Below are positions 2,222 through 57,484 of a DNA stretch of 64,000 nucleotides, piece after piece (positions within the stretch are counted from its first letter, which is position 1; each line of letters opens with the position of its first letter). Source of the DNA: Actinomycetes bacterium (GTDB lineage: Bacteria > Actinomycetota > Thermoleophilia > BMS3ABIN01); assembly GCA_021790115.1 (NCBI GenBank), contig JAJYIM010000001.1, positions 23,543 to 87,542 on the forward strand, in the 5' to 3' direction. The translations under genes were made by a program, and so were the position numbers. The notes below the pieces were generated by a model. The model did not search any database, was not told where the DNA came from, and saw only the letters and a program-made list of their open reading frames with translations.

Positions 2222-4276
2222 ATGAGGAAAACAAGCAAGCTGTTCCCGAAAAAGCCGCTGCTGCTCGCGGCAGCCGCCGCCGTGGCGGTGATCATCCTGG
2301 CTTTCGTCCCCGCGGTGGCAATGGCAACGTCCTACAGCCAGAGCAGCCAAGTAGCGGTAGTGCCGAGCACGACAAATATAGGTCCAGGCTATACGGGCCA
2401 ACTGCCAACGTCGGGCGGCGGTTTTAACGCTTTTACTTTCTCCAGTCTGCCTGAAGCCAATATTAGCGCCGCCAATTTGGCACCGTATGACACCGTTGTC
2501 CTTTACCAGGATTGCGATCTTGGCGCTAATTTGACGCCATCTCAAAAAAGCGACCTGAACAACTGGGTATCCGCCGGCCACAAGCTGATAATTTATGATT
2601 CTGATTCATGCAACCCGACAGATGGCACGACCCCGGACTGGAGCTGGCTGGCCTTCCCGTTTCAAACCAATAATCCGGGCCAGTTGGGTTCCCACAACGG
2701 CTCCCTGAGCGTGGTGGAAAACGATACTCTCGCCAGCGCCGACCCGCCCTCGGCTTACTATATTGACACGGGCAGCATAACAACCAACACCGACGCCGTC
2801 GGCGACGCGAATGTGATGGTAACCCATGACATGAACTGGTACGGAAATATGTCGGCGGTCAACGCAAACGGGGTGCACGGATGGGTGCATACCTACGCCA
2901 CCCTCGGCAGCGGCCTCGTCATTTACAACGGCCTGGACACAGACTTCATGGATACTGATCCGGGCCTGCAGAAAATCTGGCTGCAGGAGCTGCAGCAGCC
3001 CTGGAACCCGGACGGGCTGCCACACCTAAACTCGGCAGCCGCCAAGAATTACTACTGGACCTGGTACGATAACGTCGGCATGCGCAACTGGGTGCTGATG
3101 GCCAACCCGGCCGGGCGCCCCAACTTGAGCTTCAACCTTACTATTGCCGGCAAGCCATACGGCCTGTCGATGGCCGCGGGCAACGCTCCCGGTGTGGTTC
3201 AGGCGGGCAAGACACTGACAGCCATATATCCCGGCATCATTGGCGGCCCGGTGAAAGTGACATCGAAGACGGGGGACAGCGCCGTCGTCAGCCAGAGGAG
3301 CCTGATGGGCAATTCCTTCGAGGAGGTCCTGGGGACGGACGCCGACACACTCTCGAATCATTTCTTCTGGACCTGGTACGATCAGCAAAGCCCCGGCTTT
3401 ACCAACTGGGTGCTGGTCGCCAACCCATCCGCCACCGAGGCAGTGCATGTGGAGATCTCCATTGCCGGCAAACTGATTTCCCAAAACGATATTGCCCCCG
3501 GCCAGAGGTGGACGCCGACGTTCCCCGGCAAGATTGGCGGCCCGGTGGAAGTGAAGGCTTATCTAAAGGGCGGCACCTGGGCGGGAAATCCGCGTGACGT
3601 AATCGCTTCCCAGCGGGTGCTCTCCAACTTCGGCACGGCCTTTAACGAAGTTCCCGGAATTCCGTCCCGCGAGCTGAAGTCCGACTATCTCTGGACGTGG
3701 TACGACAACGCCTCTCCCGGCGCAACTGACTGGGTGCTGATCGCCAATGCCGGCTTCGATCACAGCGGCAATCCTCAAGGGACAGTGACCACCCATGTCA
3801 AGATAGGAAATACCGTCGTCGGGACGTATCACGTCGGCGCGGGTCAAAGGGTAACTCCCACATTCCCGGGCGTGATGGGCGGGCCTGTGGAAGTCTGGAC
3901 AGACTCTGGCGATGTCATTGCCTCGCAGCGCACGACCTGGGGGCCATCGTTTGAAGAGGTCCCCGGCTACGGCAAGGATGCGCTGGCCAGCGATTACAAC
4001 TGGACCTGGTACGACATGCAGAGCCCTGGCGCGGCAAACTGGATCCTGATTGCAAACCCGAATGGCTCACCCGTCACCTACACGATCAAGATAGGCGGGG
4101 TTGTCCCACCCGGGGGCACGGGCATCATCCCGGCTTATGGCCGGGTAACGCCCACTTTCCCCGGCAAGATGAACGGGCCGGTGGAGGTATCCTCCACGGG
4201 CGGCGTTGTCATGGCCTCCCAGCGGGTTACCTGGAACGGCTACTTCAACGAGGTGCTGGGGACAGTGCTGAACTAG
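2222..4276 (+). CDS. secreted repeat protein with 4-5 copies of a ~100-aa repeat (YxWTWYD...NWVLxANP...PTFPGxMGGPVEV...FNEV)
   Basis: 684-aa ORF with a GGGGAGGAG RBS 8 nt upstream. N-terminal signal peptide MRKTSKLFPKKPLLLAAAAAVAVIILAFVPAVAMA. Four clear tandem ~100-aa repeats, each starting [YF]xWTWYD and ending FNEV[LP]G. No named domain that I recognise. Confidence 0.7.
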   Translation: MRKTSKLFPKKPLLLAAAAAVAVIILAFVPAVAMATSYSQSSQVAVVPSTTNIGPGYTGQLPTSGGGFNAFTFSSLPEANISAANLAPYDTVVLYQDCDLGANLTPSQKSDLNNWVSAGHKLIIYDSDSCNPTDGTTPDWSWLAFPFQTNNPGQLGSHNGSLSVVENDTLASADPPSAYYIDTGSITTNTDAVGDANVMVTHDMNWYGNMSAVNANGVHGWVHTYATLGSGLVIYNGLDTDFMDTDPGLQKIWLQELQQPWNPDGLPHLNSAAAKNYYWTWYDNVGMRNWVLMANPAGRPNLSFNLTIAGKPYGLSMAAGNAPGVVQAGKTLTAIYPGIIGGPVKVTSKTGDSAVVSQRSLMGNSFEEVLGTDADTLSNHFFWTWYDQQSPGFTNWVLVANPSATEAVHVEISIAGKLISQNDIAPGQRWTPTFPGKIGGPVEVKAYLKGGTWAGNPRDVIASQRVLSNFGTAFNEVPGIPSRELKSDYLWTWYDNASPGATDWVLIANAGFDHSGNPQGTVTTHVKIGNTVVGTYHVGAGQRVTPTFPGVMGGPVEVWTDSGDVIASQRTTWGPSFEEVPGYGKDALASDYNWTWYDMQSPGAANWILIANPNGSPVTYTIKIGGVVPPGGTGIIPAYGRVTPTFPGKMNGPVEVSSTGGVVMASQRVTWNGYFNEVLGTVLN

Positions 4277-10067: not shown

Positions 10068-10160
10068 GCAGCGCCACAAAACCCCAAAACCGGATGATGG
10101 ATATTGGGTTGGTTTTGGGTTATCCAATGTCCAAAATCCAGCATCCAGCATCCGCTTTTC
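10068..10160. repeat. heptamer-repeat intergenic element (family 1) copy
   Basis: The minus strand, directly after the stop of the ASKHA gene, reads TAG-AAAAGCGGATGCTGGATGCTGGATTTTGGACATTGGATAACCCAAAACCAACCC... Confidence 0.55.
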
Positions 10161-11407
10161 TATATCTCCATCAGGCGGATAAACTCATCCTGAAACACCT
10201 TGTTTAAAGGCAGGGGGATGTGATGGATTTTGGCCCGCACTTCCTCAAGGTCAAGGCCGGCGCGGCGCTTCTGCGTCAGCATCAGGACGGCGCCCTGGCA
10301 GGCCGCGTCGGCAGCCACCTCGATGCGGTCGTCGGGCAGGTCAGGAAACATCTTCAGTAGGCGCGCATTATCGAGGTTGATATAACTTCCAAACGTGCCG
10401 GTAATCAGCATCCGTCCCAGCTCCTTCGCCCCCAGCTTCTTTTGTAACACCGAGATGGCGGCGTGAACCGAGGCTTTCACCAGCTGAAAGGAACGGATGT
10501 CGCGCTGGCCAACCGTGACCGGGTCTTCCCCGCCGGCAATCACCACCGGACCTTCTTTCAGCAGCCGGCCGCTGTTATCCACCCAGCCATGCCTCCTCAT
10601 CTCTGCAATAATGTCAATGAGGCCTGAGCCGCAGATGCCCTTTGCCTCACCGCCGCCCACGACCTCGTAAACAAACTTTTCCCCGTCAAGCCGGGCCTGG
10701 CAAACGGCGCCAGCCGTCGCCGAGAGCCCGAAAGACATGTGCGCGTCCTCGTAGGCAGGGCCGGCGGGAGTAGAGGCCACCAGTATCTTGCCGCGGCTGC
10801 CCAGCGCGATCTCGCAATTAGTGCCGACGTCCACCGCCAGCTCTGTTTCATCGCTGTGCGCCATCCCCACCATCAGAATATCGGCCAGAGCATCAGAGCC
10901 CACAAACCCAAAAATGGGGCGGGGCACCAGCAGGCTTGCCTTGGGGGCGGCAATGCCGAGCTTGCCAGCGGGGCCGAAGTAGTCCCGGGCGCCCTTAAGA
11001 TTGTAAGGCGAGCCGCAAAGCGGCGCCGGGTCCAGGTCGAGCAAGAAAGCAAACATGGCAGAGTTTCCCACGGCGGCAATATTACAAATATCCGCAACGT
11101 CAATGCCGGCTGCCCGGCTGAGCTGATCTAATGAATCGTTGATAGCATCGATGAGCTGGCGGTGGAGGCGCGTCCTGATGGCAGGCTGCTCGGCGGCCAG
11201 TCCCACGCGGCTGGCGATGTCGGCGCCGTATTCCTGCTGGGGATTAGCGAGCACCCGGGTGCCGAGTGCGCTGCCGTCAGCCAGCCTGACAAGGCGCGAC
11301 CAGATGCTGGAAGTGCCGACATCGATAGCGGCTCCGTAAGCGGAAGCGCCAGCGCCCGCGTCGGGAGTTTTGTTGTTATTTGTGGCATTGGAATCGTGAC
11401 CGTTCAT
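10160..11407 (-). CDS. ASKHA-fold ATPase, DUF4445/RACo C-terminal-like (candidate corrinoid reductive activase)
   Basis: AIDVGTSS (phosphate-1), DVGTNCEIALG (phosphate-2) and ICGSGLIDIIAEM resemble the ASKHA domain of RACo-type activators. ATG at 11407 is internal to the track ORF (codon 68); the upstream 67 codons are unlike any family. No ferredoxin domain. Confidence 0.55.
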   Translation of the reverse strand: MNGHDSNATNNNKTPDAGAGASAYGAAIDVGTSSIWSRLVRLADGSALGTRVLANPQQEYGADIASRVGLAAEQPAIRTRLHRQLIDAINDSLDQLSRAAGIDVADICNIAAVGNSAMFAFLLDLDPAPLCGSPYNLKGARDYFGPAGKLGIAAPKASLLVPRPIFGFVGSDALADILMVGMAHSDETELAVDVGTNCEIALGSRGKILVASTPAGPAYEDAHMSFGLSATAGAVCQARLDGEKFVYEVVGGGEAKGICGSGLIDIIAEMRRHGWVDNSGRLLKEGPVVIAGGEDPVTVGQRDIRSFQLVKASVHAAISVLQKKLGAKELGRMLITGTFGSYINLDNARLLKMFPDLPDDRIEVAADAACQGAVLMLTQKRRAGLDLEEVRAKIHHIPLPLNKVFQDEFIRLMEI

Positions 11408-11477
11408 GAAAACCGGGAAAACGTGGGGAAAAACATCCGCAAAAAACCGGGCCGGCCGGCACACCCTGCGCCTTGTC

Positions 11478-11499
11478 CCAATATACATATTGGGACAGG
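11478..11499. promoter_or_regulatory. perfect 10-bp inverted repeat GTCCCAATAT-AC-ATATTGGGAC (candidate operator)
   Basis: Seen directly in the 415-nt divergent intergenic region between the ASKHA gene (start 11407) and the B12-rSAM gene (start 11822). Confidence 0.4.
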
Positions 11500-11821
11500 C
11501 TCTTAGCGTAGCAGAAATGTGGCAGGCAAACAATCGGGACCGGAGCGCCGGTTTTTGTGGCTGCCGGCGCCCGGAAAAACCGGGCGCTGCCTGACAGCGT
11601 GGAAACAATTACAGCCCTTTGCTACACTTAAATTGAAAAGCGGTGGGAATTTGGTGTGGGGAACTGCAACGTCTCTGGAGGAGCTTTCACTTCCTCTTGC
11701 TTCACTCCTGCGGCATGCTAAGAGCCTGTCCCAGAAAGCTGTTCGTATCGAGGCCGGCCGCAGCAGAATAAGCTTACCGGGATAAGCTCCATGCCCGCAT
11801 CCTGATGAGGAGAAGGCCAGT

Positions 11822-13288
11822 TTGAAATCCATGGTTATCCTGCCGTCCTGGAAGCCCGATGATATTTATCCCTCCCGGGTCGCCAGGTCGGCAGTCAGCT
11901 ACCAGCATCCGCTGGGGCTGCTTTACATTGCTACCTGCATCCAGGCCGCCGGCCATGAAGTCAGGCTGGTGGACGGCGCTTTCTGGACCAATGCGGAGAT
12001 CCTCGGCCGGGTGCGCCGGTTTGAGCCCCGGTTCATTGGCCTTTCCGCCAACGCTTCCATGTGGAGCAAAGCAGTGAAAACCGCCGTTGATATCAAAGCC
12101 ATCAACCCCTCCATTCATGTGACTGCCGCCGGCCCCTACCCGTCTGCCGTGGAGGAGCAGTGCCTGGCGGATTGCCCTGCTCTGGATTCAATAGTCATCG
12201 GCGAGGGCGAAGAGACCGTCCCGGAAATGATTGACAAGTTGACGAATGGCCATAACCTTGAAGGGGTGGCGGGGACCGCCTTCCGCGCCCGGGACGGCGC
12301 CATTGTCAAAAACGATCCCCGGCCGCTGATCGAGGACCTGGACGCCATCCCCATCCCGCGGCGGGAGTTGCTGGGGGATTTTGACAAATACGAGTCGCCG
12401 CCGGGCAGCTACAAGCGCAAGCCGATCGCCATCGTCATGACCTCGCGCGGCTGCAAGGCCCGCTGTATTTACTGTTTCCAGATGAAGGGCGAACACCGTA
12501 TCCGCTTCCGCAGCGTTGATAACGTGGTCGAGGAAGTAGAGGAGCTGATAAACCGCTACGGCTTCCGGGAGATCAGGTTCCTGGATGAGACTTTCACAGC
12601 CGACCGGGAGCGGGCGATGGAGCTGATGCGCCGTTTCCGGGAGCTTCGGCTCGATTTCAGTTTTTATGTATCGTCCCGCGTGAACACTGTTGACTTTGAG
12701 CTGCTCCGTGAGATGAAGAAAGCCGGCTGCTGGGCCATCCTTTTTGGCGCTGAAAGCGGCGTCCAGAAAAACCTGAACACGCTGCGCAAGGGCGTGACGC
12801 TGGACCAGACGCGGGCCGCGGTGGCGGCGGCAAAAAAGGCGGGGCTCAAGGTCTATACGCCCTTTATCATCGGCATCCCCGACGAGACCTATGACGAAGC
12901 TTTAAAAACGGTCGAGTTCGCCATCGAGCTTAATCCGCATTACGCCAACTTTCACACTATGGCGCCATTCCCCGGGACCGAGCTTTACGATAATATTGAC
13001 AAATACGGCACAATGTCAGCAAATACCGATGACTACACATTCGAAGGTGGAGCGTTCGAGCCCTACTCGATGACGCGCGCGCAGATCGAAGACGTGCGCA
13101 CCATCGCCTTCCGCCGCTTTTATTCACGCCCCGGATTTATCGTCAGGCGGCTGCTGGGCGTGCGCAGCATCTATGATTTCAGGACGGTAGTCAAGGGCGC
13201 AGCCAGCTTCTTCTGGCTTTGGGTCAAGCGGGACAGCCTCTCGATGAAGCCGGTCGAACAAGACCATAAAAATCAGCCGGCGGGATGA
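11822..13288 (+). CDS. B12-binding domain radical SAM protein (class B)
   Basis: N-terminal Rossmann-like B12-binding region (LLYIATCIQAAGHEVRLVDG...), then CKARCIYC (CxxxCxxC) and an rSAM core. 488 aa. Confidence 0.8.
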   Translation: MKSMVILPSWKPDDIYPSRVARSAVSYQHPLGLLYIATCIQAAGHEVRLVDGAFWTNAEILGRVRRFEPRFIGLSANASMWSKAVKTAVDIKAINPSIHVTAAGPYPSAVEEQCLADCPALDSIVIGEGEETVPEMIDKLTNGHNLEGVAGTAFRARDGAIVKNDPRPLIEDLDAIPIPRRELLGDFDKYESPPGSYKRKPIAIVMTSRGCKARCIYCFQMKGEHRIRFRSVDNVVEEVEELINRYGFREIRFLDETFTADRERAMELMRRFRELRLDFSFYVSSRVNTVDFELLREMKKAGCWAILFGAESGVQKNLNTLRKGVTLDQTRAAVAAAKKAGLKVYTPFIIGIPDETYDEALKTVEFAIELNPHYANFHTMAPFPGTELYDNIDKYGTMSANTDDYTFEGGAFEPYSMTRAQIEDVRTIAFRRFYSRPGFIVRRLLGVRSIYDFRTVVKGAASFFWLWVKRDSLSMKPVEQDHKNQPAG

Positions 13289-13297
13289 GCGCGCGCG

Positions 13298-14335
13298 ATG
13301 AGCAAACCTGATTCCTCCTCAACGATGGTCTCGGTGGTTATCCCTGTCTACAACAAGGCAGAAACCATCGGCCCTGTCCTCGAAGCAGTCTACAACTCAA
13401 GCTACCGGAATTTTGAGGTGATTGTGGTCAACGACTGCTCCACCGACAACTGCATGGAAGTGCTGCAGGGCTTCACCGGCAAGTACCCCCACCGGCTTGT
13501 CGCCTTAAAAGAAAACATGGGGGTATCCAAGGCGCGCAATACCGGAGCCCAAAAGGCAAAGGGTGAGATCATCCTTTTTATCGACGCTGATTGCATTATC
13601 ATGCCCGACACAATGGCGCGCTGTGTTGAAAGGCTGGGCCAAGGCGGCAGCTGCGTTGGCGGCGCCTACACCAAGGACGCCTGGGACAAGGACTTCTTCA
13701 GCAACTTTCAGTCCCTTTACATCAACTATGTTGAAACCAAAAATGAGCACCCTGACTACATCGCCACCCACTGCATGGCGATCCGCAAGGATCTTTTCCA
13801 GCAATTTGGCGGTTTTGTCGAGAATTCATTTATCGGCCACCAGGCCAGCGTTGAGGATGTCGAGTTCTCGCACCGGCTGGTCGGAGCCGGCCACCAACTG
13901 CTGCGTCCCGCCGACATCCAGGTCCGGCACATGTTTGGCTTCAACTCTGCCAAGTCCATCAGGAATGCCATTAAGAAAAGCAAGTATTGGACCATGTACT
14001 CGTTAAAGAACCGCGATGTGATGCAGGACTCCGGCGCCGCCTCGCATGAGCTGAAAGCCAACGTCGCCACGCAGGTGTTAAATCTGGTCCTGGTGATGCT
14101 GGCGCTGGCGTTTCGGTTTTGGTGGCTGCTTTTGCCCATTCCCTTCTTCTATGGCGTCAACGTCGCCGTCAGCTTCCGGCTGTTTAGGTTGATCAAGCGG
14201 GAGCGCGGCTGGTGGTTTCTGGTCCGCTCGCTGGGCTACTATCAGTTCGTCTATCCCTTTGCCGTCGCTTACGGATCATTTGTTGGCACGCTAAAATATG
14301 TGTGGGAAGTGAAGATTCTGCATCGGTACGCTTGA
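13298..14335 (+). CDS. family 2 glycosyltransferase with C-terminal TM helices (polyprenyl-phosphate sugar synthase-like)
   Basis: VSVVIPVYNKAETIGPVLEAV...VIVVNDCSTDN...IDAD is a GT2 DxD. The C-terminal 90 aa contain 2-3 hydrophobic helices, as in DPM1/GtrB/ArnC-type enzymes. Confidence 0.75.
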   Translation: MSKPDSSSTMVSVVIPVYNKAETIGPVLEAVYNSSYRNFEVIVVNDCSTDNCMEVLQGFTGKYPHRLVALKENMGVSKARNTGAQKAKGEIILFIDADCIIMPDTMARCVERLGQGGSCVGGAYTKDAWDKDFFSNFQSLYINYVETKNEHPDYIATHCMAIRKDLFQQFGGFVENSFIGHQASVEDVEFSHRLVGAGHQLLRPADIQVRHMFGFNSAKSIRNAIKKSKYWTMYSLKNRDVMQDSGAASHELKANVATQVLNLVLVMLALAFRFWWLLLPIPFFYGVNVAVSFRLFRLIKRERGWWFLVRSLGYYQFVYPFAVAYGSFVGTLKYVWEVKILHRYA

Positions 14336-14339
14336 ACAC

Positions 14340-14435
14340 CGGTTTCGGGTTGCGGGTTTCCCTGTTAACTAATACTCAGCCCGGTTCAAAACCTAAACCT
14401 GGTGTGTGAAAACCCGAAACCCGCAACCCGCAACT
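14340..14435. repeat. heptamer-repeat hairpin (GGTTTCG GGTTGCG GGTTTCC ... AAACCCG AAACCCG CAACCCG)
   Basis: Tandem 7-nt units, with an inverted copy 45 nt downstream, between the GT2 stop and the rSAM start. Confidence 0.5.
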
Positions 14436-14453
14436 TTGTATTAAGTTTTAATA

Positions 14454-15539
14454 ATGTACTCACCAATAAAATACATCCCCGCCGTATTCCTGAAGAACAG
14501 GCTGCTGCAGTTTACGTTCTTCATCACCTCGCGCTGCAACGCGCGCTGCCCATTTTGTTTTTACTGGCAGGACCGGCATAGCCGCCGCCGTGAGCTTGAC
14601 CTGGACGAAATTGAGAAAACAAGCCGCTCGCTGGGCGGGCTGCTGTGGCTGCTTTTCTCCGGCGGGGAGGTATTCCTCCGCCAGGACCTGGCTGACATCG
14701 TCGCTGCCTTTTACCGCAATAACCGTCCGGTAATCATCACGCTGCCCACCAATGGGCTGGCGCCGGACCTGATCATTCCCCAGGCTGAAGAAATCGCCGC
14801 CGGCTCGCCCAACAGCGCCGTTGTGATTAAAGTGTCGCTCGACGGCGTCGGCGCGGACCACGACCGCATCCGCAACACCCCCGGCAATTTTGACAAAGCG
14901 ATGGAAACCTGGGAGGGGCTGCGGCCGCTGCGGCGGCGGCACCAAAACCTGCAGATAGGCATCAACACTGTCTTCATGCGGGAAAATCAGGACAACTTGG
15001 ACGAAATAATTGATTTTGTCAACGAGCTGCCGGACTGCGAGACCCACACCATCTCCCTGATTCGCGGCAACCCGGCCGGCGATAACGGCAAAGGCATTGA
15101 CCTGGGAAAGTATCTGCGAACAGTAGAGCGGCTGGAGCAGGACTTGAAAGGCCACCGGCCCAAGATGTACCATTTCACTCTGGCGCGGTTAAAATCCGCC
15201 CAGGATTTGATCCAACGGCAACTGATTTACGAGACCGTCCGCCAGGGAAGGCGGCAGCTTCCCTGCTATGCCGGCCGCATCACAGCCGTGATGAATGAGG
15301 TGGGGGACGTCTTTCCGTGTGAGATTCTCGACTGCCCGATGGGAAACGTGCGCGATAGCGGCTATGATTTAATGAAAGTGTTTAGCTCTGCGGCGGCCGA
15401 CTCCGTCAGGGCGAAAATCAACAGTTCCAGATGCTACTGTTCACACGAGTGCTATTTCGTCACAAACATTCTTTTCAATCCAATGATGTATGGACGGCTG
15501 ATCAAACAGTTCGCGGCGCTGAGGCAGCCGGGCCGGTAA
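14454..15539 (+). CDS. radical SAM/SPASM domain protein
   Basis: CNARCPFC (CxxxCxxC) near the N-terminus and a GGE motif. The C-terminal Cys cluster (LPCYAG...VFPCE...CPMGN...SSRCYCSHECYF) is SPASM/twitch-like. 361 aa. Confidence 0.8.
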   Translation: MYSPIKYIPAVFLKNRLLQFTFFITSRCNARCPFCFYWQDRHSRRRELDLDEIEKTSRSLGGLLWLLFSGGEVFLRQDLADIVAAFYRNNRPVIITLPTNGLAPDLIIPQAEEIAAGSPNSAVVIKVSLDGVGADHDRIRNTPGNFDKAMETWEGLRPLRRRHQNLQIGINTVFMRENQDNLDEIIDFVNELPDCETHTISLIRGNPAGDNGKGIDLGKYLRTVERLEQDLKGHRPKMYHFTLARLKSAQDLIQRQLIYETVRQGRRQLPCYAGRITAVMNEVGDVFPCEILDCPMGNVRDSGYDLMKVFSSAAADSVRAKINSSRCYCSHECYFVTNILFNPMMYGRLIKQFAALRQPGR

Positions 15540-17221
15540 GCACGGAGGAGCCGCCTGCGCCCCGCGTTATCCAGACCGGCGGCCCTTCCCGCAAAGCGCT
15601 TGCCGCCAGCCTCGCCGCCATCTTTCTGCTCGTGCTGGCTGTCGCCATTCCCTTTTTGGGGCAGGCGCTCCACATCGACGACGCGATTTTCTGGGACTTT
15701 GCCAGCAATAACATTTCTCACCCATTTCAGCAGCATCTTTCCAATTACCCGCTGATGGGCCAGGAAGTGGGGGCGTTCCGGGACACGCACCCTCCTTTTG
15801 ATGAGCTTTACATTTCCGTCATTATGCTGGCAGCCGGCACCACCGCGCCGGAGGCTTTTTTCCATGCCGGATTTATAATTTTCCCGCTGATCGCGGGCGT
15901 TTCCATGTTCTTTCTTGCCCGCCGCTTTACCAAAAGTGCCCTGCTGGCAGCCCTGTTGCTGCTGTCCACGCCGGCAGTGATGGTGCTTTCCCATACCTTA
16001 ATGGGAGATCTGCCAATGACTGCCTTTTGGCTGGCGGCGACCGCCGCCTACATCTACGGGGCTGACCGGGGCAGCCGGCCGCTGCTTGCCCTGTCAAGCT
16101 TACTGATTACCCTGGCGGTTTTTACCGGCTACCAGGCTCTGGCCCTGATCTTGCTGCTGCCGGCATACTGGTGGCTAAAAGCAGGCCGGTTGAGATGGAT
16201 GGCAGTCCTGCCTGTTCTTTTGCCGGCGCTTGCTTTTGCTGCCTACATATGGTTTAACCTGGCCAAGTACGGCGCGCTGCCGCGTTTCTCGCATGCGCAG
16301 GGACTTAGCGTTCAGGAAAACAACTTGATCTCGCGCTTCCAGGGGATGTTCCTGGAGTTGGGCGGCGCATCGGTCTTTCCGCCTTTTTTGGCGGCTGGTT
16401 TTATGCTGCGCCGCAAACGGTACCTGGCGCTGCCGGCCGTGGCGGCCGGCGCAGCGCTGCTTGGCTGGCGCCAGCTCTCGCCGGGTTACCCGCCTGCCAG
16501 CGCCGTCCTGCTGGCTATATTTTTCTTCGCGGGCGCCTGCATGATAACCGGGATAGTTTCCGAGGGGCTGATCCAGATAGCAAACCGGTTCAGGCGCCTA
16601 CCGCTGGACCGTGACTTTTTGTTCCTCGCCCTCTGGCTGGGCTCGATTCTGGCGGCCGTCGTCGGCCTTTTGCCGGATGCCACCGTCCGGTACTACCTTC
16701 CCGTCTTCGCCCCGCTGATTATATTGATGTTCCGGGAGGCAGATGCTGCCCTTTCTTCGCGGCGGCTGCTGCAGGGGCTGGCGGTCGCCGCAATCGGGAC
16801 GTCATTTATCACGGGCCTATGGCTGTCGATGGCCGATTACCAGCTGGCCCAGGCATATAAGGATTTTGTCCTGTCGGTCCAGTCCCGTTATCATCCCGGA
16901 GGCGCCGTCTGGTTTGTGGGCGAGTGGGGCTTTCGCCACTATATGGAACTCGAGGGGTACCGGTACCTTACTTCAGACAGCACCGAGCCTCGAAAAGGCG
17001 ATCTGATAATCGAACCCAGTTACATGCAGCGGCCCGTGGCGCCTTCGCTGTGCAAACGCATGCAGCTGGTGGATGCTCCGGCGGCCACATGGGCAGTGCC
17101 GGTGCGGGTCATGAGCGTGGCGGCGGACGCCGGCTTTTACGGCACTTACTGGGGGCGGCTGCCCTTTACCATCACCACGCAGCCGCTGGAGCGTTTTGAC
17201 GTATACGCAGTAAACAGTTAG
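15431..17221 (+). CDS. polytopic membrane protein, GT-C (ArnT/PMT-like, GT39/83) glycosyltransferase candidate; start uncertain
   Basis: More than 10 predicted TM helices, with a first-loop HIDDAIFWDF motif reminiscent of GT-C DxD/ExD enzymes. ATG 15431 overlaps the preceding gene by 109 nt. A GGAGGAG lies at 15544-15550, but no canonical start follows it. Confidence 0.5.
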   Translation: MLLFTRVLFRHKHSFQSNDVWTADQTVRGAEAAGPVSTEEPPAPRVIQTGGPSRKALAASLAAIFLLVLAVAIPFLGQALHIDDAIFWDFASNNISHPFQQHLSNYPLMGQEVGAFRDTHPPFDELYISVIMLAAGTTAPEAFFHAGFIIFPLIAGVSMFFLARRFTKSALLAALLLLSTPAVMVLSHTLMGDLPMTAFWLAATAAYIYGADRGSRPLLALSSLLITLAVFTGYQALALILLLPAYWWLKAGRLRWMAVLPVLLPALAFAAYIWFNLAKYGALPRFSHAQGLSVQENNLISRFQGMFLELGGASVFPPFLAAGFMLRRKRYLALPAVAAGAALLGWRQLSPGYPPASAVLLAIFFFAGACMITGIVSEGLIQIANRFRRLPLDRDFLFLALWLGSILAAVVGLLPDATVRYYLPVFAPLIILMFREADAALSSRRLLQGLAVAAIGTSFITGLWLSMADYQLAQAYKDFVLSVQSRYHPGGAVWFVGEWGFRHYMELEGYRYLTSDSTEPRKGDLIIEPSYMQRPVAPSLCKRMQLVDAPAATWAVPVRVMSVAADAGFYGTYWGRLPFTITTQPLERFDVYAVNS

Positions 17222-17232
17222 CGCCCTGTTGC

Positions 17233-17251
17233 ACAGGCTAAAAGCCTGTGC
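17233..17251. terminator. terminator-like hairpin CACAGGCT-AAAA-GCCTGTG, part of a 27-nt motif shared with 36421-36447
   Basis: Perfect 8-bp stem between convergent gene ends (17221 and 17274). The identical 27-mer TGCACAGGCTAAAAGCCTGTGCCTACC recurs at 36421. Confidence 0.55.
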
Positions 17252-17273
17252 CTACCAGCCTGTGCCTACCGCA

Positions 17274-18716
17274 TTAACGAACCGCCCGCCGCCGAGCCCT
17301 CAACTTCATCCTGTCCGCGGTCAGCCTCACGAACGCCCGCGTCATGCGGGCATAACGCCTCACATCGTCCGGCCCCTCAATGGAAGCAATCATATTGGCA
17401 AACTGCCTGGGCCGGAAAAAGAAGTTGCTAATCGACCGCCTTTGCATAGCTTGGAGATATTCTTCCGTCAGGCCATTGGGCACGAAGCTAAGATCGCCGC
17501 GCGGATAACCTGTACCCAAATCCAGCCCCTTGTTTACCGTTCCATATCGATCCGCGATCTCGCGGGCCTCTGAACCGGGAGCCAGATACATGACGGCCAT
17601 ATTCATGGAATGCAAAGGCAGCGACTTGGCGAAATCAATTGTCTCCTTGATCGTTTCCGGAGTATCCACCAGATGACCCATAATAAAATACCCGCGGATC
17701 TTGATGCCGGCTTCATCCAGCCACCGGGAGACCCGGATGACAGTTTGTTTGTCCACCGGCTTCCTGATGAACTTCAAAACCTCATCGTTCCCGCTCTCAA
17801 TGCCCACAGATACAAGCCAACAGCCTGCATCTTTCATGGCGCGGATAACCTCCGGATCAAGAGTTTTCAGATTCACGGTCGCCGTCCAGATGATGTCCAG
17901 CTTTCTTTCCTTGATCAACGCGCATATCTTCAGAACCCGCTTCTTGTTTAGCGCGAACGTATCTTCATGAAAGCTGATCTCCCTGGCGTTAAACCTGTTG
18001 ACAACATATTCCATCATATCAACGACGTACTTGGCAGAGTTGGCCCGCCACCGCTTGGTCCAGACTGAGTTGCAGAATATGCATGAAAAGGGACAGCCCC
18101 GGCTGGTGACAAGCGTAATCACCGGGCGGCGCCGGTAAACCAGGAGCTGCGGGTTATAGCCGGCAAGATCGTCAATCAGATGAAAGGCGGGGAACGGCAT
18201 CTCGTCAAGGTTGTCAATATACGGCCGCGGCTCATTTTTTAACATCTTGCCATTTTGGCGGTAATGCAGGCCTCTGACGCTTGTCAGCTCGCCCCCGTTT
18301 TCCAGAGTTTGCACGAGCTCAAGCAGGGTCAGCTCCCCTTCTCCGTCCACAAGATAATCAAAGGAATCGAACTGGGCCAGGTCTTCCGGATAGACAATGA
18401 CATGGGGGCCGCCGGCGACAATGGGAATATCAAATTCCTGCTTCAAATGACGGGCGTTTTCGATCGCCGCGTCTGCGCCAATCGAATAGACGGACAGGCC
18501 GATCAGGCCGGGGCCAAATTCCCTCACCTTGGCGCTTAAACTGTTGTGACTGAGCGGGTATCTGACCGAATCAAGGATCTTGACCGTGTGACCCGCCTGC
18601 TCCAGGACGCTCGCCAGGCACATCAGGCCGTAGGGGGGCAGGTAAGCGCCGATGTCATCCAGGTTGCCATACCGGTTTTCGCCGCTGATGGCGCCGCTTA
18701 TCAGGAGGACCCTCAT
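17274..18716 (-). CDS. B12-binding domain radical SAM protein (class B), second copy
   Basis: N-terminal B12-binding region (YLPPYGLMCLASVLEQAGHTVKILD) and CPFSCIFC (CxxxCxxC). 480 aa. Paralog of the 11822 gene. Confidence 0.8.
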   Translation of the reverse strand: MRVLLISGAISGENRYGNLDDIGAYLPPYGLMCLASVLEQAGHTVKILDSVRYPLSHNSLSAKVREFGPGLIGLSVYSIGADAAIENARHLKQEFDIPIVAGGPHVIVYPEDLAQFDSFDYLVDGEGELTLLELVQTLENGGELTSVRGLHYRQNGKMLKNEPRPYIDNLDEMPFPAFHLIDDLAGYNPQLLVYRRRPVITLVTSRGCPFSCIFCNSVWTKRWRANSAKYVVDMMEYVVNRFNAREISFHEDTFALNKKRVLKICALIKERKLDIIWTATVNLKTLDPEVIRAMKDAGCWLVSVGIESGNDEVLKFIRKPVDKQTVIRVSRWLDEAGIKIRGYFIMGHLVDTPETIKETIDFAKSLPLHSMNMAVMYLAPGSEAREIADRYGTVNKGLDLGTGYPRGDLSFVPNGLTEEYLQAMQRRSISNFFFRPRQFANMIASIEGPDDVRRYARMTRAFVRLTADRMKLRARRRAVR

Positions 18717-18974
18717 TCAGGCTCCATTAAATAAAGAGCACCCCAGGGAATGCCCTTGGACAGAAAAATCAATTTCATTTCAAAAAAACAGTTTTTTGGC
18801 AAGAAAAGAAGAGCTGGGAATTTGGCAGCATTTTTTCAAAAAAGAAGACACACCCCATAGCTTGATTCATTTTATGTTTCCTGCGCCGGCTCGCGCTAGC
18901 GTCACGCTTGATATAAAACTATGTTACGTGAAAAGCTACATTTAATTCAACTTTTTTAGAATGCGAGTCACTCC

Positions 18975-19025
18975 TGGTCTGGAATCTGTCTCAAAGGGTC
19001 GTTCGCAGCGAGGCTAGACGAAAGA
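18975..19025. repeat. TIR hairpin element (family 2), degenerate partial copy D
   Basis: CTGGAATCTGTCTCAAAGGGTCGTTCGCAGCGAGGC matches the internal core AAAAGGCTGTTCGCAGCGAGGCC of copies A-C. Confidence 0.4.
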
Positions 19026-19044
19026 GCCATGGACAAGGACGCAG

Positions 19045-19683
19045 TCAAGCGCCGCCCATCAGCTCGCGGCAGGCCGCCAGGGTGCTCTTGACGTCACCGG
19101 CAAAAGCGTCCACGCCCACCTCCCTGGCCAACTCCGGCGAGTGGGCGGCGCCACCGGAGACAACCTTGACCCTGCCGCGCAGGCCGGCCTCACCCAGGGC
19201 GGAAATGACATCCATCAGGGCCTGTTTTGTTGATGTGGTAAAAGCGGAAAGCAGCAGCAGGTCGGCGTTAACCTCCTTGACCTTGGCGACAAACTTTGCT
19301 GCAGAGACATTTACGCCCAGGTCATAAACCCTGTATCCGGCCGCCCTGAGTGCAGAGACAATGATATTTTTACCAATGTTGTGAACATCGCCCCTGACAG
19401 TTCCCATCACCACGACGCCGGCGTGATCGGGCCGCCGCTCGAACAGGTAAGGGTCCAGCACCTGCAGCGCCGCCTCCACTGCCGCGGCTGAGCGCAGCAT
19501 CTCCGGGATGAAATACTCGCCTGTCTCATACTTGGCGCCGACCTCTTCCATCGCTGATGACAAAGCGGCAAGAATCCGGCCGGCGGAATATGTATCCCGG
19601 GCCGCAACTTCGCCGGCAAGGCCGGCGGCCGCCTCAGCGTCGCCGGCTACCAGCGCCTGCTTAAATCTGTCCAGAAGTCCCAA
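19045..19683 (-). CDS. corrinoid (cobalamin-binding) protein, MtbC/MtaC-like
   Basis: N-terminal B12-binding_2 helical cap and a Rossmann B12 domain with the DxHxxG motif (GDVHNIGKNI) plus GVVVMGTV. 212 aa. Confidence 0.8.
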   Translation of the reverse strand: MGLLDRFKQALVAGDAEAAAGLAGEVAARDTYSAGRILAALSSAMEEVGAKYETGEYFIPEMLRSAAAVEAALQVLDPYLFERRPDHAGVVVMGTVRGDVHNIGKNIIVSALRAAGYRVYDLGVNVSAAKFVAKVKEVNADLLLLSAFTTSTKQALMDVISALGEAGLRGRVKVVSGGAAHSPELAREVGVDAFAGDVKSTLAACRELMGGA

Positions 19684-19685
19684 GC

Positions 19686-20696
19686 CTAATACTTTCCGTA
19701 CTTCCTGCCAAACTCGACCAGGGCGGCCACGTTTTCTGCCGGCGCGCTTGAGGGAATCGAGTCTCCCGTGCTTAAAATAAACCGCCCTCCTGCCTTAGCG
19801 GCCTTCATGGCAGTTTCCACCGCCCTCTCCACATCGGCGCGAGACCCTTTCTCCATAACCGAGACAGCATCAATATTCCCTTTGAGGACCACTTTGCCGC
19901 CGACTGCTTGCCGCGCCTGGACAAGATCTACGGGTGAATCAATCTCGAGCACGGCGGCGCCGGTGCGGGCCATTTCCGGCAGGATGGGCAAGCTGTTGCG
20001 GCAAATGTGAAGGATAACCGGGGCCATCTGCTTCAGTTCAGCAACCGCCTCCACTTCTGCCGGGAAGGCAAACTCACGGTAATGGTCCGGCGAAATCATG
20101 CTGGTGGAAGCAAAAGAATCCTTGATGACGATAGCGTCGGCGCCGGCCTGGGCCAAGGCTCTTCCGACCGCCAGCGTCGCCGGCAGGCAAGCCCTGATGA
20201 GGTCACGGGCCAACTGTGGATTCCGGTAAAAATCAGTGAAAAAATCAACCAGCCCGCGCACGGAGGCGGCGTACTCAAACGCCGAGCGCACCGATCCCAA
20301 AATAGCAATGCCGCTGCCCAACTGCCGAGCCAGCCTCCTGACCGGCTCCAGCTTGCCTTCCTGCCAGGGGTCCGGCACAGCAATTTTAGCCAGATCCCCG
20401 GCGTCCTCGATCAGCGTCTCAACCACCAGCGGCACCTGGTTCCCTTTAACCTCAACCCGGCAGCCAAGCAGATTGGGATGCCGCCCCAGGCCCATTTCGG
20501 CCACGGCGCCGTCATAGCCAAACGCCTTTTGCGCCGCCGCCAGCGCCTGGGCCAGGCAGCTATCATCCAACCAGCATTCGTCATTGCCGCGGCCAATAAC
20601 CTTGGGCGCAAAATAACCATCCAGGACCGGAACCACTGGAACCATGTCGGGCGTCTCGCCGGCGAGAACTGCGAAGAAACGCTCGCGGGAATTCAC
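19686..20696 (-). CDS. uroporphyrinogen decarboxylase (URO-D) family methyltransferase, MtaA/MtbA-like (methylcobamide:acceptor MT2)
   Basis: 336 aa. URO-D fold, with a layout like methylcobamide:CoM methyltransferases. Directly upstream of, and co-oriented with, the corrinoid protein (3-nt gap). Confidence 0.7.
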   Translation of the reverse strand: MNSRERFFAVLAGETPDMVPVVPVLDGYFAPKVIGRGNDECWLDDSCLAQALAAAQKAFGYDGAVAEMGLGRHPNLLGCRVEVKGNQVPLVVETLIEDAGDLAKIAVPDPWQEGKLEPVRRLARQLGSGIAILGSVRSAFEYAASVRGLVDFFTDFYRNPQLARDLIRACLPATLAVGRALAQAGADAIVIKDSFASTSMISPDHYREFAFPAEVEAVAELKQMAPVILHICRNSLPILPEMARTGAAVLEIDSPVDLVQARQAVGGKVVLKGNIDAVSVMEKGSRADVERAVETAMKAAKAGGRFILSTGDSIPSSAPAENVAALVEFGRKYGKY

Positions 20697-20715: not shown

Positions 20716-20985
20716 TCAAGCCCGGGCTGCTTCCAGCCGGGGAGCGTCTTTCCACAAAACTTCCAAACGGTAAAAATCGCGGGCTTCGGGGGAGAATATA
20801 TGAACTACCACGTTTAAATAATCCATCAAAATCCAGTCGCCGCCGGCCTCGCCTTCCACGCGCAAGGGAGAGCTTCCCGTTTTCTTTATCTGCCTGCGGA
20901 CCTCGTCAGCGATGGCTCTGGACTGACGGGGGTTGCGGCCGGTCAGGATAACAAAGAAATCGGTAAAGGAGCAAACCTCCTTCAT
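20716..20985 (-). CDS. rsfS: ribosome silencing factor RsfS (Iojap); conserved N-terminus continues upstream without a canonical start
   Basis: FTDFFVILTGRNPRQSRAIADEV...MDYLNVVVHIF is RsfS. In-frame upstream sequence (to ~21070) encodes LAKEIAAAAAEKKAAEIVILQ, the usual RsfS N-terminus, but no ATG/GTG/TTG precedes it. Confidence 0.7.
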   Translation of the reverse strand: MKEVCSFTDFFVILTGRNPRQSRAIADEVRRQIKKTGSSPLRVEGEAGGDWILMDYLNVVVHIFSPEARDFYRLEVLWKDAPRLEAARA

Positions 20986-21072
20986 CTGCAGGATGACAAT
21001 CTCCGCCGCTTTTTTTTCGGCGGCTGCCGCGGCAATTTCTTTGGCTAATTTCTCGCTTTTCGTAGCTTGCCC

Positions 21073-22158
21073 CTATTGCTGTTTCCGCAGGTCCTGCAAA
21101 CTGAGGTCACTTCCAATGATAACAATGATTTGCCGTTTTTGAAGTGAATCATCCTTGATGATGGTTCCCTTGCCCAGCAGGTCGTGTATCTGGTTGCTGG
21201 GCCCAAGCGCATCGCTGCCGTACCTGATCTGGGTATAGCCGAAGCCGACCCCGGACTGATCAGATTGCGGCACCATCGTAAAGCGAAGCGGCGCCAGCCG
21301 GGCGGCGAGTGCGTCCGCCAGCGACTGATCGGCAGCGCCCTTGCGGATCCCCAGGGTGAAGGTCGCGTTTACCGGTGAGCCGGACATGAGCGCCTGCAGC
21401 TCGTCGGGCTGGAGATCAAGGTACCATGACTGGCCGCTGCCCGCCCGGCGCACCGGCAGGGGCCAAACCCCAAACGGCTTGCCCGGCGTGGTCATCGCCA
21501 AAAACATGGCGGTAAAATCATCTGCGCTCATGTCGGTTTTTATGCGCCGGTATAACTCCCGGGCCAGGTTGCGGCGGTCCAGCCCGGGCTTGCCCATGAT
21601 GCCATCGCGCAAGCCGCGGTAGAACAGGGCCTGGATCTGCGGGCCGGCGCCGCCGTCATTCACTGAATCATTTAAATAAGCCATCGCCTCATGGGGGCCT
21701 TCCTGGTTGTCGCCTGCCGTGAGGTTAATGGAGCCGTCTTCGCTGCTTAAAGGGCGGTCTGCCTTAAAGTTGACGGTGCCCGCCTGCCCGGCCAGGAATT
21801 CGACCGCGCTTAAATCAAACTCCAGGTGATAGCGGATGGGCACCTTCAACAGGTTGGCCACGGTCTGATCCAGGAGCGGCTGGCCGCCCAGCTCGATAAC
21901 GGTCCCGAGTTGCTGAAACCCGTGGCCGGGCGTGTCGGCTAGAGTGCGGACAGGTAGCGTGTAAACACTGTAGCCGCCCTGGCCATCCGGAGATGCAAGC
22001 AAGATCTGGCTCAGCTTGCCGCTCGCGTCCCTGCCGGTCATGATTACGTTCTGGCTGCCGGCCTCAGCGGGAGGCGGCGCTTCAGCGGTGTTCCTCGATT
22101 TTACCAGCAGTAAAATGACGATGAATGCGGCTGCAGAAACCGCTATCCCTGCAAGCAA
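21073..22158 (-). CDS. LCP family (LytR-CpsA-Psr) cell-envelope phosphotransferase
   Basis: N-terminal TM helix (IAVSAAAFIVILLLV) and an extracellular LCP domain (...FDLSAVEFLAGQAGTVNF...). TTG start at 22158. The frame stays open upstream with an Arg-rich segment overlapping the nadD end. Confidence 0.7.
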   Translation of the reverse strand: MLAGIAVSAAAFIVILLLVKSRNTAEAPPPAEAGSQNVIMTGRDASGKLSQILLASPDGQGGYSVYTLPVRTLADTPGHGFQQLGTVIELGGQPLLDQTVANLLKVPIRYHLEFDLSAVEFLAGQAGTVNFKADRPLSSEDGSINLTAGDNQEGPHEAMAYLNDSVNDGGAGPQIQALFYRGLRDGIMGKPGLDRRNLARELYRRIKTDMSADDFTAMFLAMTTPGKPFGVWPLPVRRAGSGQSWYLDLQPDELQALMSGSPVNATFTLGIRKGAADQSLADALAARLAPLRFTMVPQSDQSGVGFGYTQIRYGSDALGPSNQIHDLLGKGTIIKDDSLQKRQIIVIIGSDLSLQDLRKQQ

Positions 22159-50758: not shown

Positions 50759-50922
50759 TTTCCCTCTCAATTTTAAGTGACAAGAAATAATAACAAAAAC
50801 CGGACTCCGGATGCTAGACACTGGATGGCGGATAAACCCAAATCTCCAAATTTCTAATATCTTCCCGTTGAGGCTGAGCCGGCCATCCCACCTTTGTTTG
50901 TTTCTGCTATCCTGAAAATACG

Positions 50923-51522: not shown

Positions 51523-51653
51523 CCAGCGATTCAAATCAAACCCTTGCCCCGCCAAAATGCGGTGTCTAAAATACTGCTAATGTGAGATTTGAAATTATCA
51601 CCTGAACGCTGGATATTGAACGATCCAAAGTCCAATATCCAAACTCGGTTATC

Positions 51654-51731
51654 GGGCGATTAGCTCAGCTGGTTAGAGTGCTGCCCTCACATGGCAGAGG
51701 TCACTGGTTCGAGTCCAGTATCGCCCACCAA
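51654..51731 (+). tRNA. tRNA-Val (anticodon CAC), CCA encoded
   Basis: Manual cloverleaf: GGGCGAT/ATCGCCC acceptor, GCTC-AGCTGGTTA-GAGT D arm, CTGCC-CTCACAT-GGCAG anticodon arm, TTCGAGT T-loop, then ACCA. Confidence 0.88.
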
Positions 51732-57464: not shown

Positions 57465-57484
57465 TTATAATGACCAAAATATAA

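Follow-up and report, generated by a model that had tools for sequence, protein, structure and literature searches.

A clade-wide combination of radical SAM, glycosyltransferase and corrinoid methyl-transfer genes in Thermoleophilia

Introduction

Class-B (cobalamin-domain) radical S-adenosylmethionine (SAM) enzymes are among the largest enzyme groups, and most of them are without known substrates. Two such enzymes are encoded in a 64,000-nucleotide stretch of the metagenome-assembled genome of an uncultured bacterium of the subsurface, a member of Thermoleophilia (Actinomycetota) (MAG; GenBank GCA_021790115.1, contig JAJYIM010000001.1, positions 23,543 to 87,542), which was analysed as a whole and is referred to here as the window. 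They lie within eight neighbouring genes (10160-20696) that also encode a third radical SAM enzyme, a family 2 glycosyltransferase (GT2), a membrane glycosyltransferase of the GT-C type, a corrinoid protein, a UroD-family methyltransferase and an ATPase resembling the corrinoid activase RACo. An earlier reading made from the nucleotides alone (the sequence-only reading) had picked out this combination as unusual and had suggested an undescribed envelope-modification pathway. The locus raises the question of what the radical SAM and glycosyltransferase genes make, and whether the corrinoid genes take part in making it or simply stand next to them.

We find that the cluster is a real, clade-wide and undescribed combination, whose nearest described counterparts are orphan mlp clusters and the HpnI/HpnJ pair; literature searches found no description of this gene combination. 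Its core, formed by the first B12-domain radical SAM enzyme (B12rSAM1), the GT2, the third radical SAM enzyme (rSAM) and the GT-C, is a real unit and one version of a widespread, uncharacterised module. The reading that we prefer, tentatively and at a little under an even chance, is that the region is a composite biosynthetic locus of one Thermoleophilia clade, in which an envelope or lipid-linked sugar-tailoring core is coupled to a corrinoid methyl shuttle.

Results

An eight-gene layout conserved in Thermoleophilia

Domains were called by Pfam and NCBIfam scans and judged on curated cut-offs. Pfam backed each of the domains that the sequence-only reading had assigned to the eight adjacent genes at 10160-20696, SPASM and PMT_2 with window scores below their cut-offs (see below). 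The gene content of its cluster description stood, whereas the order did not: the genes actually run activase, B12rSAM1, GT2, rSAM, GT-C, second B12-domain radical SAM enzyme (B12rSAM2), corrinoid protein and UroD. B12rSAM1, GT2, rSAM and GT-C share a strand and are separated by 9, 118 and 92 nt. The corrinoid set brackets this core operon, with the activase transcribed divergently from B12rSAM1 and the UroD-corrinoid pair at the far end.

To define the distribution of the locus, the B12rSAM1 family was scanned for in one genome per GTDB species (185,579 species genomes), giving 419 relatives. The loci of the best 80 of these 419, each with 10-kb flanks, were compared by searching them for the window proteins with tblastn; extra loci came from a metagenome scan seeded with the window UroD protein. 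The full layout was found in ~19 Thermoleophilia species-level genomes, wherever the contig was long enough, and in ~7 metagenome contigs. The clade order is IMPDH, signal peptidase, RACo-like activase, B12rSAM1, GT2, rSAM, GT-C, a slot for B12-rSAM genes, corrinoid protein, UroD, rsfS, a LytR-CpsA-Psr (LCP) family gene and nadD. Homologues of the eight genes are thus co-localised across related genomes, a point on which the sequence-only reading had let its proposal depend. It had also looked to Chloroflexota for these relatives; the nearest ones are all MAGs labelled Thermoleophilia, Gaiellales or Actinomycetes, so that the Chloroflexota assignment is wrong.

Within the clade, the cluster proteins are 62-88% identical (GT-C 44-78%), similar to the housekeeping proteins NadD (63-83%) and RsfS (63-82%), from which we conclude that the cluster genes are under purifying selection. 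Two parts of the layout vary: the IMPDH-signal peptidase stretch, in length, and the B12-rSAM slot.

A distant contig with both gene sets

Independent evidence was obtained from a 12-kb contig of an unrelated run (L088), on which the core and the UroD-corrinoid pair occur together in a different order and with different flanks. The UroD and corrinoid genes there converge on a regulator gene, rSAM, GT2 and B12rSAM1. Identities to the window proteins are 53% for UroD, 47% for the corrinoid protein, 51% for rSAM, 48% for GT2 and 51% for B12rSAM1. The flanks encode a PAPS-reductase-family protein, a Wzx-like flippase, a methyltransferase, a polysaccharide deacetylase and a CWB2 wall-binding protein.

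In neighbour-joining (NJ) trees, the L088 GT2 and rSAM were sister to the Thermoleophilia versions. The L088 B12rSAM1 fell on the Thermoleophilia side of the midpoint root, inside an archaeal group that is sister to Thermoleophilia, and the bacterial versions that are linked to an amine oxidase (see below) all fell across the root from L088 and Thermoleophilia. Judging from the juxtaposition and the trees, the five genes look co-inherited across ~50% identity divergence, despite rearrangement.

The core in other phyla has a different partner set

Of the loci compared, 63 came from outside Thermoleophilia: Nitrospirota, Desulfobacterota, Gamma- and Betaproteobacteria, Deferribacteres, Clostridiales, other Actinomycetota, and Hydrothermarchaeota with related archaea. 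Identities to the window were 51-56% for B12rSAM1, 43-52% for rSAM and 37-47% for GT2, and rSAM and GT2 adjoined B12rSAM1 in about half of these loci. In none of the 63 did a gene for a RACo-like, corrinoid or UroD protein lie within 10 kb. More than 60 loci of other phyla with the same core and no corrinoid genes nearby bear out the sequence-only reading in calling the Thermoleophilia combination unusual.

Instead, 56 of the 63 loci carry a gene for an amine-oxidase (PF01593) flavoprotein whose stop overlaps the B12rSAM1 start. This flavoprotein was found in no Thermoleophilia locus, in neither L088 nor the window, and the UroD-corrinoid pair shows the opposite pattern; as partners of the core, the amine oxidase and the pair exclude each other. 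Clustering of all ORFs from these loci, with scans of representatives, gave as the canonical order elsewhere DsrE-like, rhodanese, PMT_2 GT-C, YedE-like Sulf_transp, TusA, Usp, amine oxidase and B12rSAM1, followed by rSAM and GT2 on the opposite strand and then a double rhodanese (L002 2208-16386 and most of L023-L083). Archaeal loci retain only the rhodanese, the amine oxidase and B12rSAM1. The two versions of the locus share an orthologous B12rSAM1, rSAM and GT2 together with a PMT_2-like GT-C, but elsewhere the core has a flavoprotein and sulfur-relay genes and no corrinoid genes, whilst the window has the reverse; neither amine oxidase nor sulfur-relay homologues were found in it.

A PMT_2-type GT-C is present in 26 of the non-Thermoleophilia loci. 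Comparison of the window/Thermoleophilia GT-C with the Nitrospirota type by hhalign gave a probability of 91.7% (E 7.8e-7, 137 columns); by pairwise BLAST, the window GT-C and the Nitrospirota-type protein showed no significant match.

In composition, the sulfur-relay block matches the 'YTD' cluster, which has been proposed as a marker of sulfur disproportionation (PMC12998232), the two being compared by gene content alone. The 'conserved hypothetical' genes of that cluster may include these envelope and radical SAM genes.

The core proteins and their possible role in sugar tailoring

B12rSAM1 (11822-13288, + strand; PF02310 and PF04055) has the class-B architecture of a B12-binding domain followed by a radical SAM core, with the CxxxCxxC motif CKARCIYC, whose cysteines C211/C215/C218 are invariant in the family. 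Its best NCBIfam match is HpnJ (TIGR03471), nearly end to end, at 232.2 bits against a cut-off of 577.6, and the second best is BchE. An AlphaFold 2 (AF2) model (predicted local distance difference test, pLDDT, 68.5) matched TsrM, AprD4, QCMT, OxsB, TokK and CysS about equally well (Foldseek E 7e-18 to 1e-15). By sequence, the nearest solved relatives are AprD4, the closest, and QCMT, a glutamine C-methylase. AprD4, a dehydratase of sugar 1,2-diols, binds no cobalamin (2026 B12-rSAM review).

HpnJ itself follows the glycosyltransferase HpnI and the deacetylase HpnK and is proposed to contract the ring of a lipid-bound glucosamine; calditol synthase (Cds) is its archaeal analogue (PMC13459092). 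The window shares with these systems a GT2-type enzyme and a B12-domain radical SAM enzyme, which in HpnI/HpnK/HpnJ and Cds remodel a membrane-bound sugar (PMC13459092). It differs in having neither hopanoid genes nor a deacetylase and in adding a SPASM-like rSAM, a GT-C and the corrinoid set. No hopanoid context (shc, hpnH, hpnI, hpnK), squalene/hopene cyclase or other lipid gene was found in the 64-kb window.

The GT2 (13298-14335, + strand; PF00535, 114.6 bits) has an invariant DAD motif, with D96/D98 likewise invariant, and a hydrophobic C-terminal region (residues 252-281). The sequence-only reading had placed it in the polyprenyl-phosphate-sugar synthase type. The DxD motif and the hydrophobic C-terminus agree with this, but the likeness to DPMS, ArnC and GtrB extends only over the N-terminal ~120 residues; the PDB matches to these proteins are confined to residues 8-134 and weaker than those to chondroitin synthase, and the score for the ArnC family (NF007986), 49.9 bits, falls short of the cut-off of 529. 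Since the likeness is that of the generic nucleotide-binding half, a lipid-carrier acceptor is an assumption. As with ArnC/ArnT, GtrB/GtrC and Ppm/Pmt, one operon encodes a membrane-associated GT2 and, downstream of it, a PMT_2-like GT-C, but the window GT2 is not specifically related to those enzymes and two radical SAM genes are set into the operon.

The rSAM (14454-15539, + strand; PF04055, 59.6 bits) has a SPASM/twitch-like, cysteine-rich C-terminus that scores 19.7 bits with SPASM (PF13186; cut-off 21.5). In 18 orthologues, C28/C32/C35 and the C-terminal C271, C289, C327, C329 and C333 are conserved. Over its full length, the family profile can be aligned with CteB (5wgg), the nearest single-sequence PDB matches are BlsE, a glucuronate decarboxylase, and SkfB, and the best NCBIfam matches are NirJ2 and AhbD.

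The GT-C (15632-17221, + strand) is polytopic with at least seven strongly hydrophobic segments. It scores 20.7 bits with PMT_2 (PF13231; cut-off 26.1), and 14 of 14 orthologues match this family at E < 0.01 (best 6.4e-15). Three acidic residues after the first helix, D16/D17/D22 (HIDDAIFWDF), are invariant in the 14 orthologues. A longer open reading frame (ORF), which begins at 15431, shares sequence with the rSAM gene and is probably unused. An AF2 model made from the single sequence only (pLDDT 40.7) was too low in confidence for a fold search, and the GT-C profile gave no match to PDB sequences at E up to 1.

Membership of the HpnJ, BchE, NirJ/AhbD, MftC/MftF, ArnC and MtaA families was rejected, all scores being below curated cut-offs. 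As no core component reaches a curated family threshold, the function of the core is something that we infer.

A variable slot for B12-domain radical SAM genes

B12rSAM2 (17274-18716, - strand) also has PF02310 and PF04055, with the CxxxCxxC motif CPFSCIFC, and is 31% identical to B12rSAM1; the two are paralogues, as the sequence-only reading had it. Its best NCBIfam match is again HpnJ, near end to end, at 197.8 bits against the cut-off of 577.6. For both enzymes the next matches after HpnJ are BchE or P-methyltransferases.

Between the GT-C and corrinoid genes, the slot contains zero to three B12-rSAM genes, which are of at least two types (L004-L022, L091-L097 and the window). L004 is the closest relative of the window (B12rSAM1 88% identical), yet its slot holds another B12-rSAM type. 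This variation among Thermoleophilia loci marks B12rSAM2 as an exchangeable accessory gene. The paralogues pile up directly downstream of the corrinoid gene.

The corrinoid set is not a canonical methyltransferase kit

The UroD protein (19686-20696, - strand; PF01208, 200.3 bits) was taken by the sequence-only reading for an MtaA-like second methyltransferase (MT2) of the corrinoid cycle. Its metal triad, however, reads His-Cys-Asp throughout the subfamily (LHICRNS...GDSIP), where MtaA-like proteins have HxC...GC; the Asp takes the place of the third zinc ligand of MtaA-type enzymes. Amongst the nearest 153 UroD representatives, 123 have His-Cys-Cys and 17 have His-Cys-Asp. The protein scores 156.3 bits with the MtaA/CmuA family (TIGR01463; cut-off 235.4), and the nearest solved structure is MtaA (4ay7, 78 bits). 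Identity to other UroD proteins falls in steps: at least 64% in Thermoleophilia, 47-53% in a handful, and at most 34% in all others. An exhaustive profile search of 1.84 billion representatives found ~3 high-scoring 50%-identity clusters (568, 559 and 374 bits), below which there is a continuum of UroD-family methyltransferases.

Given the triad and the score below the MtaA/CmuA cut-off, the UroD protein is not a canonical MT2. In the UroD superfamily, which includes O-demethylases, His-Cys-Cys marks S/Se-methyltransferases, and a carboxylate in place of Cys marks O-methyltransferases or O-demethylases (PMC10418091). From its motif, the window protein is probably O-directed rather than thiol-directed. 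By analogy with MtsA, a single UroD enzyme that catalyses both half-reactions (Tallant et al. 2001, cited as ref. 10 in PMC10418091), it may be a donor-side enzyme or carry out both half-reactions. This bears on the suggestion that the substrate-specific methyltransferase (MT1) is missing. Pfam maps across the 64 kb did reveal no MT1-type gene (MttB, MtaB or similar; MtrH-like), and no second methyltransferase, folate-dependent or other, was seen there; but with a carboxylate triad and the MtsA precedent, the absence of an MT1 is not established, and the MT2/MT1 label may be reversed.

The corrinoid protein (19045-19683, - strand) has a B12-binding_2 cap (PF02607, 55.1 bits) and a B12-binding domain (PF02310, 80.4 bits) with the DxHxxG motif DVHNIG, and the start of its gene overlaps the end of the UroD gene. 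It scores below the cut-offs of the curated families pyl_corrinoid (TIGR02370; 148.5 against 215.3 bits), MtgC (152.6 against 370) and MtbC (143.9 against 350). Every NCBIfam score of the pair is likewise under its cut-off; the two genes fit no curated methylotrophy family, membership of a well-known methylotrophy operon having been named by the sequence-only reading as a point that would count against it. The UroD gene starts 19 nt past the rsfS stop codon, and this gap is 2-20 nt in all Thermoleophilia loci; the UroD-corrinoid pair is probably co-transcribed with a nadD-LCP-rsfS housekeeping operon.

The activase (10160-11488/11608, - strand; PF14574 183.7 bits, PF17651 122.6 bits) has an uncertain start, at 11488 by the public gene call or at 11407 by comparison with ~400-aa orthologues. 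It is of the RACo type (187-188 bits to 3zyy/4c1n) and not a BadF/BcrA-type protein or sugar kinase, in agreement with the sequence-only reading. That reading's 'complete' corrinoid kit is nevertheless incomplete: only the RACo middle and ASKHA ATPase domains are present, aligning to residues 201-615 of 3zyy, and Pfam detected neither Fer2 nor Fer4, that is, neither the N-terminal [2Fe-2S] domain of RACo nor the [4Fe-4S] domain of RamA. NCBIfam scores were 202 bits for AcsV (cut-off 800) and 82 for RamA (cut-off 500). Orthologues in the clade are 392-430 aa long with the same two domains; distant ~600-aa homologues carry the ferredoxin domain PF00111.

Amongst described systems, Type 1 mlp clusters (Kountz & Balskus, PMC10418091) likewise combine UroD, corrinoid and activase (Ram/RACE) families without a folate methyltransferase. 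They need at least two Mlps (Mlp2, Mlp3) with His-Cys-Cys and are tied to S/Se metabolism (PMC10418091), whereas the window has one URO-D gene, with His-Cys-Asp, an Fe-S-less activase and radical SAM and glycosyltransferase neighbours. Membership of this type was rejected on the single URO-D family gene in cluster and window. The methylthiol:CoM methyltransferase MtsA/MtsB and the O-demethylases OdmB/VdmB, which work with a corrinoid protein and an activating enzyme, are two- to four-component UroD and corrinoid systems, among which a carboxylate-substituted metal site is the mark of the O-directed members (PMC10418091); unlike them, the window UroD has MtaA as its nearest structure (at the 78 bits given above), and there is no folate- or CoM-side partner in the 64 kb.

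The same UroD-corrinoid subfamily was also found in loci other than those of the core. In L086, which is archaeal, the pair adjoins DUF3179 and polysaccharide-related genes; an amine oxidase at the edge of this locus was considered as a hidden link to the core and rejected, being unrelated to the B12rSAM1-linked amine oxidase. In L090 (157-5857) and L089 (539-4080), which are related to the L088 lineage, sucD, a bona fide hemE and aglB, for an AglB/STT3 oligosaccharyltransferase, come after the His-Cys-Asp pair, with aroC also adjoining. This hemE scores 418 bits with URO-D, so that two URO-D family genes of different function stand side by side.

Surroundings of the cluster

One flank of the cluster carries pdxS/pdxT, an IMPDH-like gene and signal peptidase I. 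The other begins with rsfS and the LCP-family gene (together 20716-22158, - strand; RsfS by public gene call, LCP by PF03816 at 25.9 bits and LytR_C at 23.6 bits) and continues with nadD, proA, proB, a murA-like gene and the ATP synthase operon. In Pfam maps over the 64 kb, the rest of the window held housekeeping and mobile genes only; no flippase gene was found in the window.

An Rfam scan of the whole window returned two tRNAs only, with no cobalamin or SAM riboswitch, and a window scan for promoters and terminators did not exceed shuffled sequence. Between the activase gene and B12rSAM1 there is a perfect 11+11 nt palindrome, TGTCCCAATAT-AC-ATATTGGGACA (11474-11497). This 24-nt element is kept in no related locus, and a looser pattern was matched in 21 of 100 shuffles, which is not clearly above chance.

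Away from the cluster, the stretch at 50900-63400 looks mobile or island-like, with G+C content dropping to 0.49 at 56-58 kb. It contains tRNAs at 51654-51727 and 63332-63406, an integrase fragment (rve), an AAA_14/DUF4143 ATPase (52255-53403), an AbiEi/AbiEii toxin-antitoxin pair (54715-56159), a BtrH_N/DUF4872 protein (57485-58528), a P-type ATPase (59437-61989) and two DUF2769 genes. Two large ORFs have no Pfam match (2222-4276, + strand, 684 aa; 38930-40648, - strand, ~563 aa). A 579-aa DUF6311 membrane protein (45798-47537, - strand) is encoded between prfA (RF-1) and prmC, an unusual place for a large membrane protein.

Discussion

On the reading that we prefer, the membrane-anchored GT2 would put a sugar on a membrane lipid carrier or lipid; the HpnJ-like B12rSAM1 would C-methylate that sugar, or rearrange or contract its ring; the SPASM-like rSAM would oxidise, decarboxylate or epimerise it; and the GT-C would pass the product to an acceptor on the membrane's outer face. 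The slot would gather interchangeable accessory B12-rSAM tailoring enzymes. The UroD protein, the corrinoid protein and the Fe-S-less RACo-type ATPase would form a methyl shuttle, inherited with this version of the core, that adds or removes an O-methyl group on the glycoconjugate or its precursor. The substrates, the order of the steps and any physical or metabolic link between shuttle and core are what we infer from the observed gene content, domains, motifs, synteny, distribution and co-phylogeny.

In keeping with an envelope role are the hydrophobic tail of the GT2, the hydrophobic segments and acidic loop of the GT-C, the polysaccharide-related flanks of L088 and the adjoining LCP gene; that two widely differing versions of the locus both keep a GT-C beside the core fits outward transfer of the product. 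Sugar chemistry has its precedent in HpnJ as the best curated match and in the presence of AprD4 (acting on an aminoglycoside sugar) and BlsE among the nearest solved relatives. For the coupling of shuttle and core, the evidence is the fixed layout, L088 (the item that tells most), the NJ trees, the complementary distribution of the amine oxidase and the UroD-corrinoid pair, and the His-Cys-Asp triad. We give about even odds to the corrinoid set working in the core's own pathway.

Several observations weigh against this coupling, or against details of the proposed pathway. The housekeeping flanks (IMPDH, signal peptidase, rsfS, LCP, nadD) are also syntenic, so that the layout may be inherited order. 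Independent support comes from one 12-kb contig, L088, and the trees are simple NJ trees with a midpoint root and without support values. The same-subfamily UroD-corrinoid pair occurs without the core in three lineages (L086, L089/L090). Its tight gap to rsfS suggests read-through from the housekeeping operon and not from the core. Other Fe-S-less RACo-like proteins, 36-39% identical to the window activase, are encoded, in another lineage, as the last gene of an rnfCDGEAB-thioredoxin operon (L102 68-6633, L103 4644-11209, L104 3-3499), which suggests ferredoxin/Rnf-fed, possibly general-purpose activases; to our knowledge, no activase of this type has been described. For the core itself, the GT-Cs of Thermoleophilia and of other phyla are homologous at profile level only, and the GT2 showed no specific relationship to polyprenyl-phosphate GT2 enzymes in sequence comparison.

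Much of this would be expected if two unrelated systems stood side by side by descent, an envelope-glycoconjugate core and a self-contained two-component methyltransferase (the UroD-corrinoid pair, together with the RACo-like activase) expressed from nadD-LCP-rsfS, with the pair acting like MtsA/MtsB or as an O-demethylase front end that scavenges methyl groups of methoxylated or other O-methyl compounds for central metabolism. We tend to doubt this alternative, whilst granting it a substantial probability. The conserved gap downstream of rsfS, the pair standing alone in L086 and L089/L090, the >60 core loci without the pair and the rnf-linked activases all speak for it. O-demethylases are, moreover, present in the UroD superfamily, orphan UroD, corrinoid and RACE clusters without a folate methyltransferase are known (PMC10418091), and MtsA (Tallant et al. 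2001, cited in PMC10418091) shows that one enzyme can suffice for both half-reactions. An accidental neighbour would not, however, be expected to be split around the core as the corrinoid set is, nor to be juxtaposed with it again in L088, with a uniform 47-53% identity over five proteins and with core genes that branch with Thermoleophilia. The gathering of B12-rSAM paralogues directly downstream of the corrinoid gene and the lack of a second methyltransferase in the 64 kb also count against it. The opposite possibility, an intimate link that had been raised by the sequence-only reading, is that the corrinoid set services the B12-rSAM enzymes, by carrying methyl groups from an O-methyl donor to their bound cobalamin or by returning it to Co(I). 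SAM would then be replaced as methyl source, and so spared, in an energy-limited subsurface organism, and the amine-oxidase flavoprotein coupled to B12rSAM1 in other phyla would be a functional counterpart. Co-localisation and co-phylogeny with the core agree with this, as do a donor-side UroD triad, with B12-rSAM genes taking the place of the missing acceptor-side methyltransferase, and a flavoprotein whose translational coupling to B12rSAM1 elsewhere hints at a need for a dedicated partner. We nonetheless regard it as unlikely: we found no described B12-rSAM enzyme that takes methyl from a corrinoid protein; B12rSAM1 is not proven to be a methylase, its relatives HpnJ and BchE are not methylases and AprD4 binds no cobalamin; the activase has no Fe-S domain through which electrons could enter; the B12rSAM1 family for the most part does without a corrinoid set; and reactivation cycles are described for methionine synthase and for CFeSP, a corrinoid iron-sulfur protein, only (2026 B12-rSAM review).

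Two further alternatives concern what the core acts on. After the fashion of HpnI/HpnJ or calditol synthase, it could alter the head group of a membrane lipid, with the GT2 glycosylating a lipid, B12rSAM1 contracting or methylating the sugar and the PMT_2-like protein having a separate envelope role. HpnJ is the best curated match of both B12-rSAM enzymes, near end to end, HpnI-HpnK-HpnJ and Cds are radical SAM precedents on lipid-bound sugars (PMC13459092), and the GT2 is without specific likeness to polyprenyl-phosphate enzymes. The scores lie far under the HpnJ cut-off of 577.6, however, the window has no squalene/hopene cyclase, HpnH, HpnK or other lipid gene, and the GT-C is kept with the core in two distant lineage groups, suggesting that it uses the product; we consider this alternative improbable. 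Maturation of a ribosomally synthesised and post-translationally modified peptide (RiPP) or of a tetrapyrrole cofactor, with the radical SAM enzymes acting on a peptide or porphyrinoid, is very improbable. In PDB profile comparison, the rSAM is matched best by the RiPP maturases CteB and SkfB, NirJ2/AhbD and BchE appear among the matches of rSAM and B12rSAM1, respectively, and a URO-D gene is present. Against these stand scores that are every one 5-10 fold under the family cut-off, a GT2 and a GT-C that would have no role, and a URO-D protein that belongs to the MtaA-like type of methyltransferase and has a corrinoid protein as its partner. Neither the short intergenic gaps nor the rest of the 64 kb held a credible small ORF for a precursor peptide, and on this the sequence-only reading, which had thought a RiPP role less likely, was right.

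Whichever of these holds, the locus offers two leads. One is a widespread core whose product is probably part of the cell envelope of subsurface and sulfur-cycling microbes. The other is a natural experiment in which one core has two partner sets: a corrinoid shuttle in Thermoleophilia and L088, and a flavoprotein with a YedE/TusA/DsrE relay elsewhere. We know of no described accessory system for class-B radical SAM enzymes, and if the shuttle fed the B12-rSAM enzymes directly, this would be a new principle of cofactor supply. If the two gene sets were unrelated, the locus would open up an uncharacterised branch of UroD methyltransferases, that with His-Cys-Asp. Should shuttle and core act together, as in the reading that we prefer, methyl transfer by corrinoid proteins would extend from energy metabolism to the tailoring of glycoconjugates.

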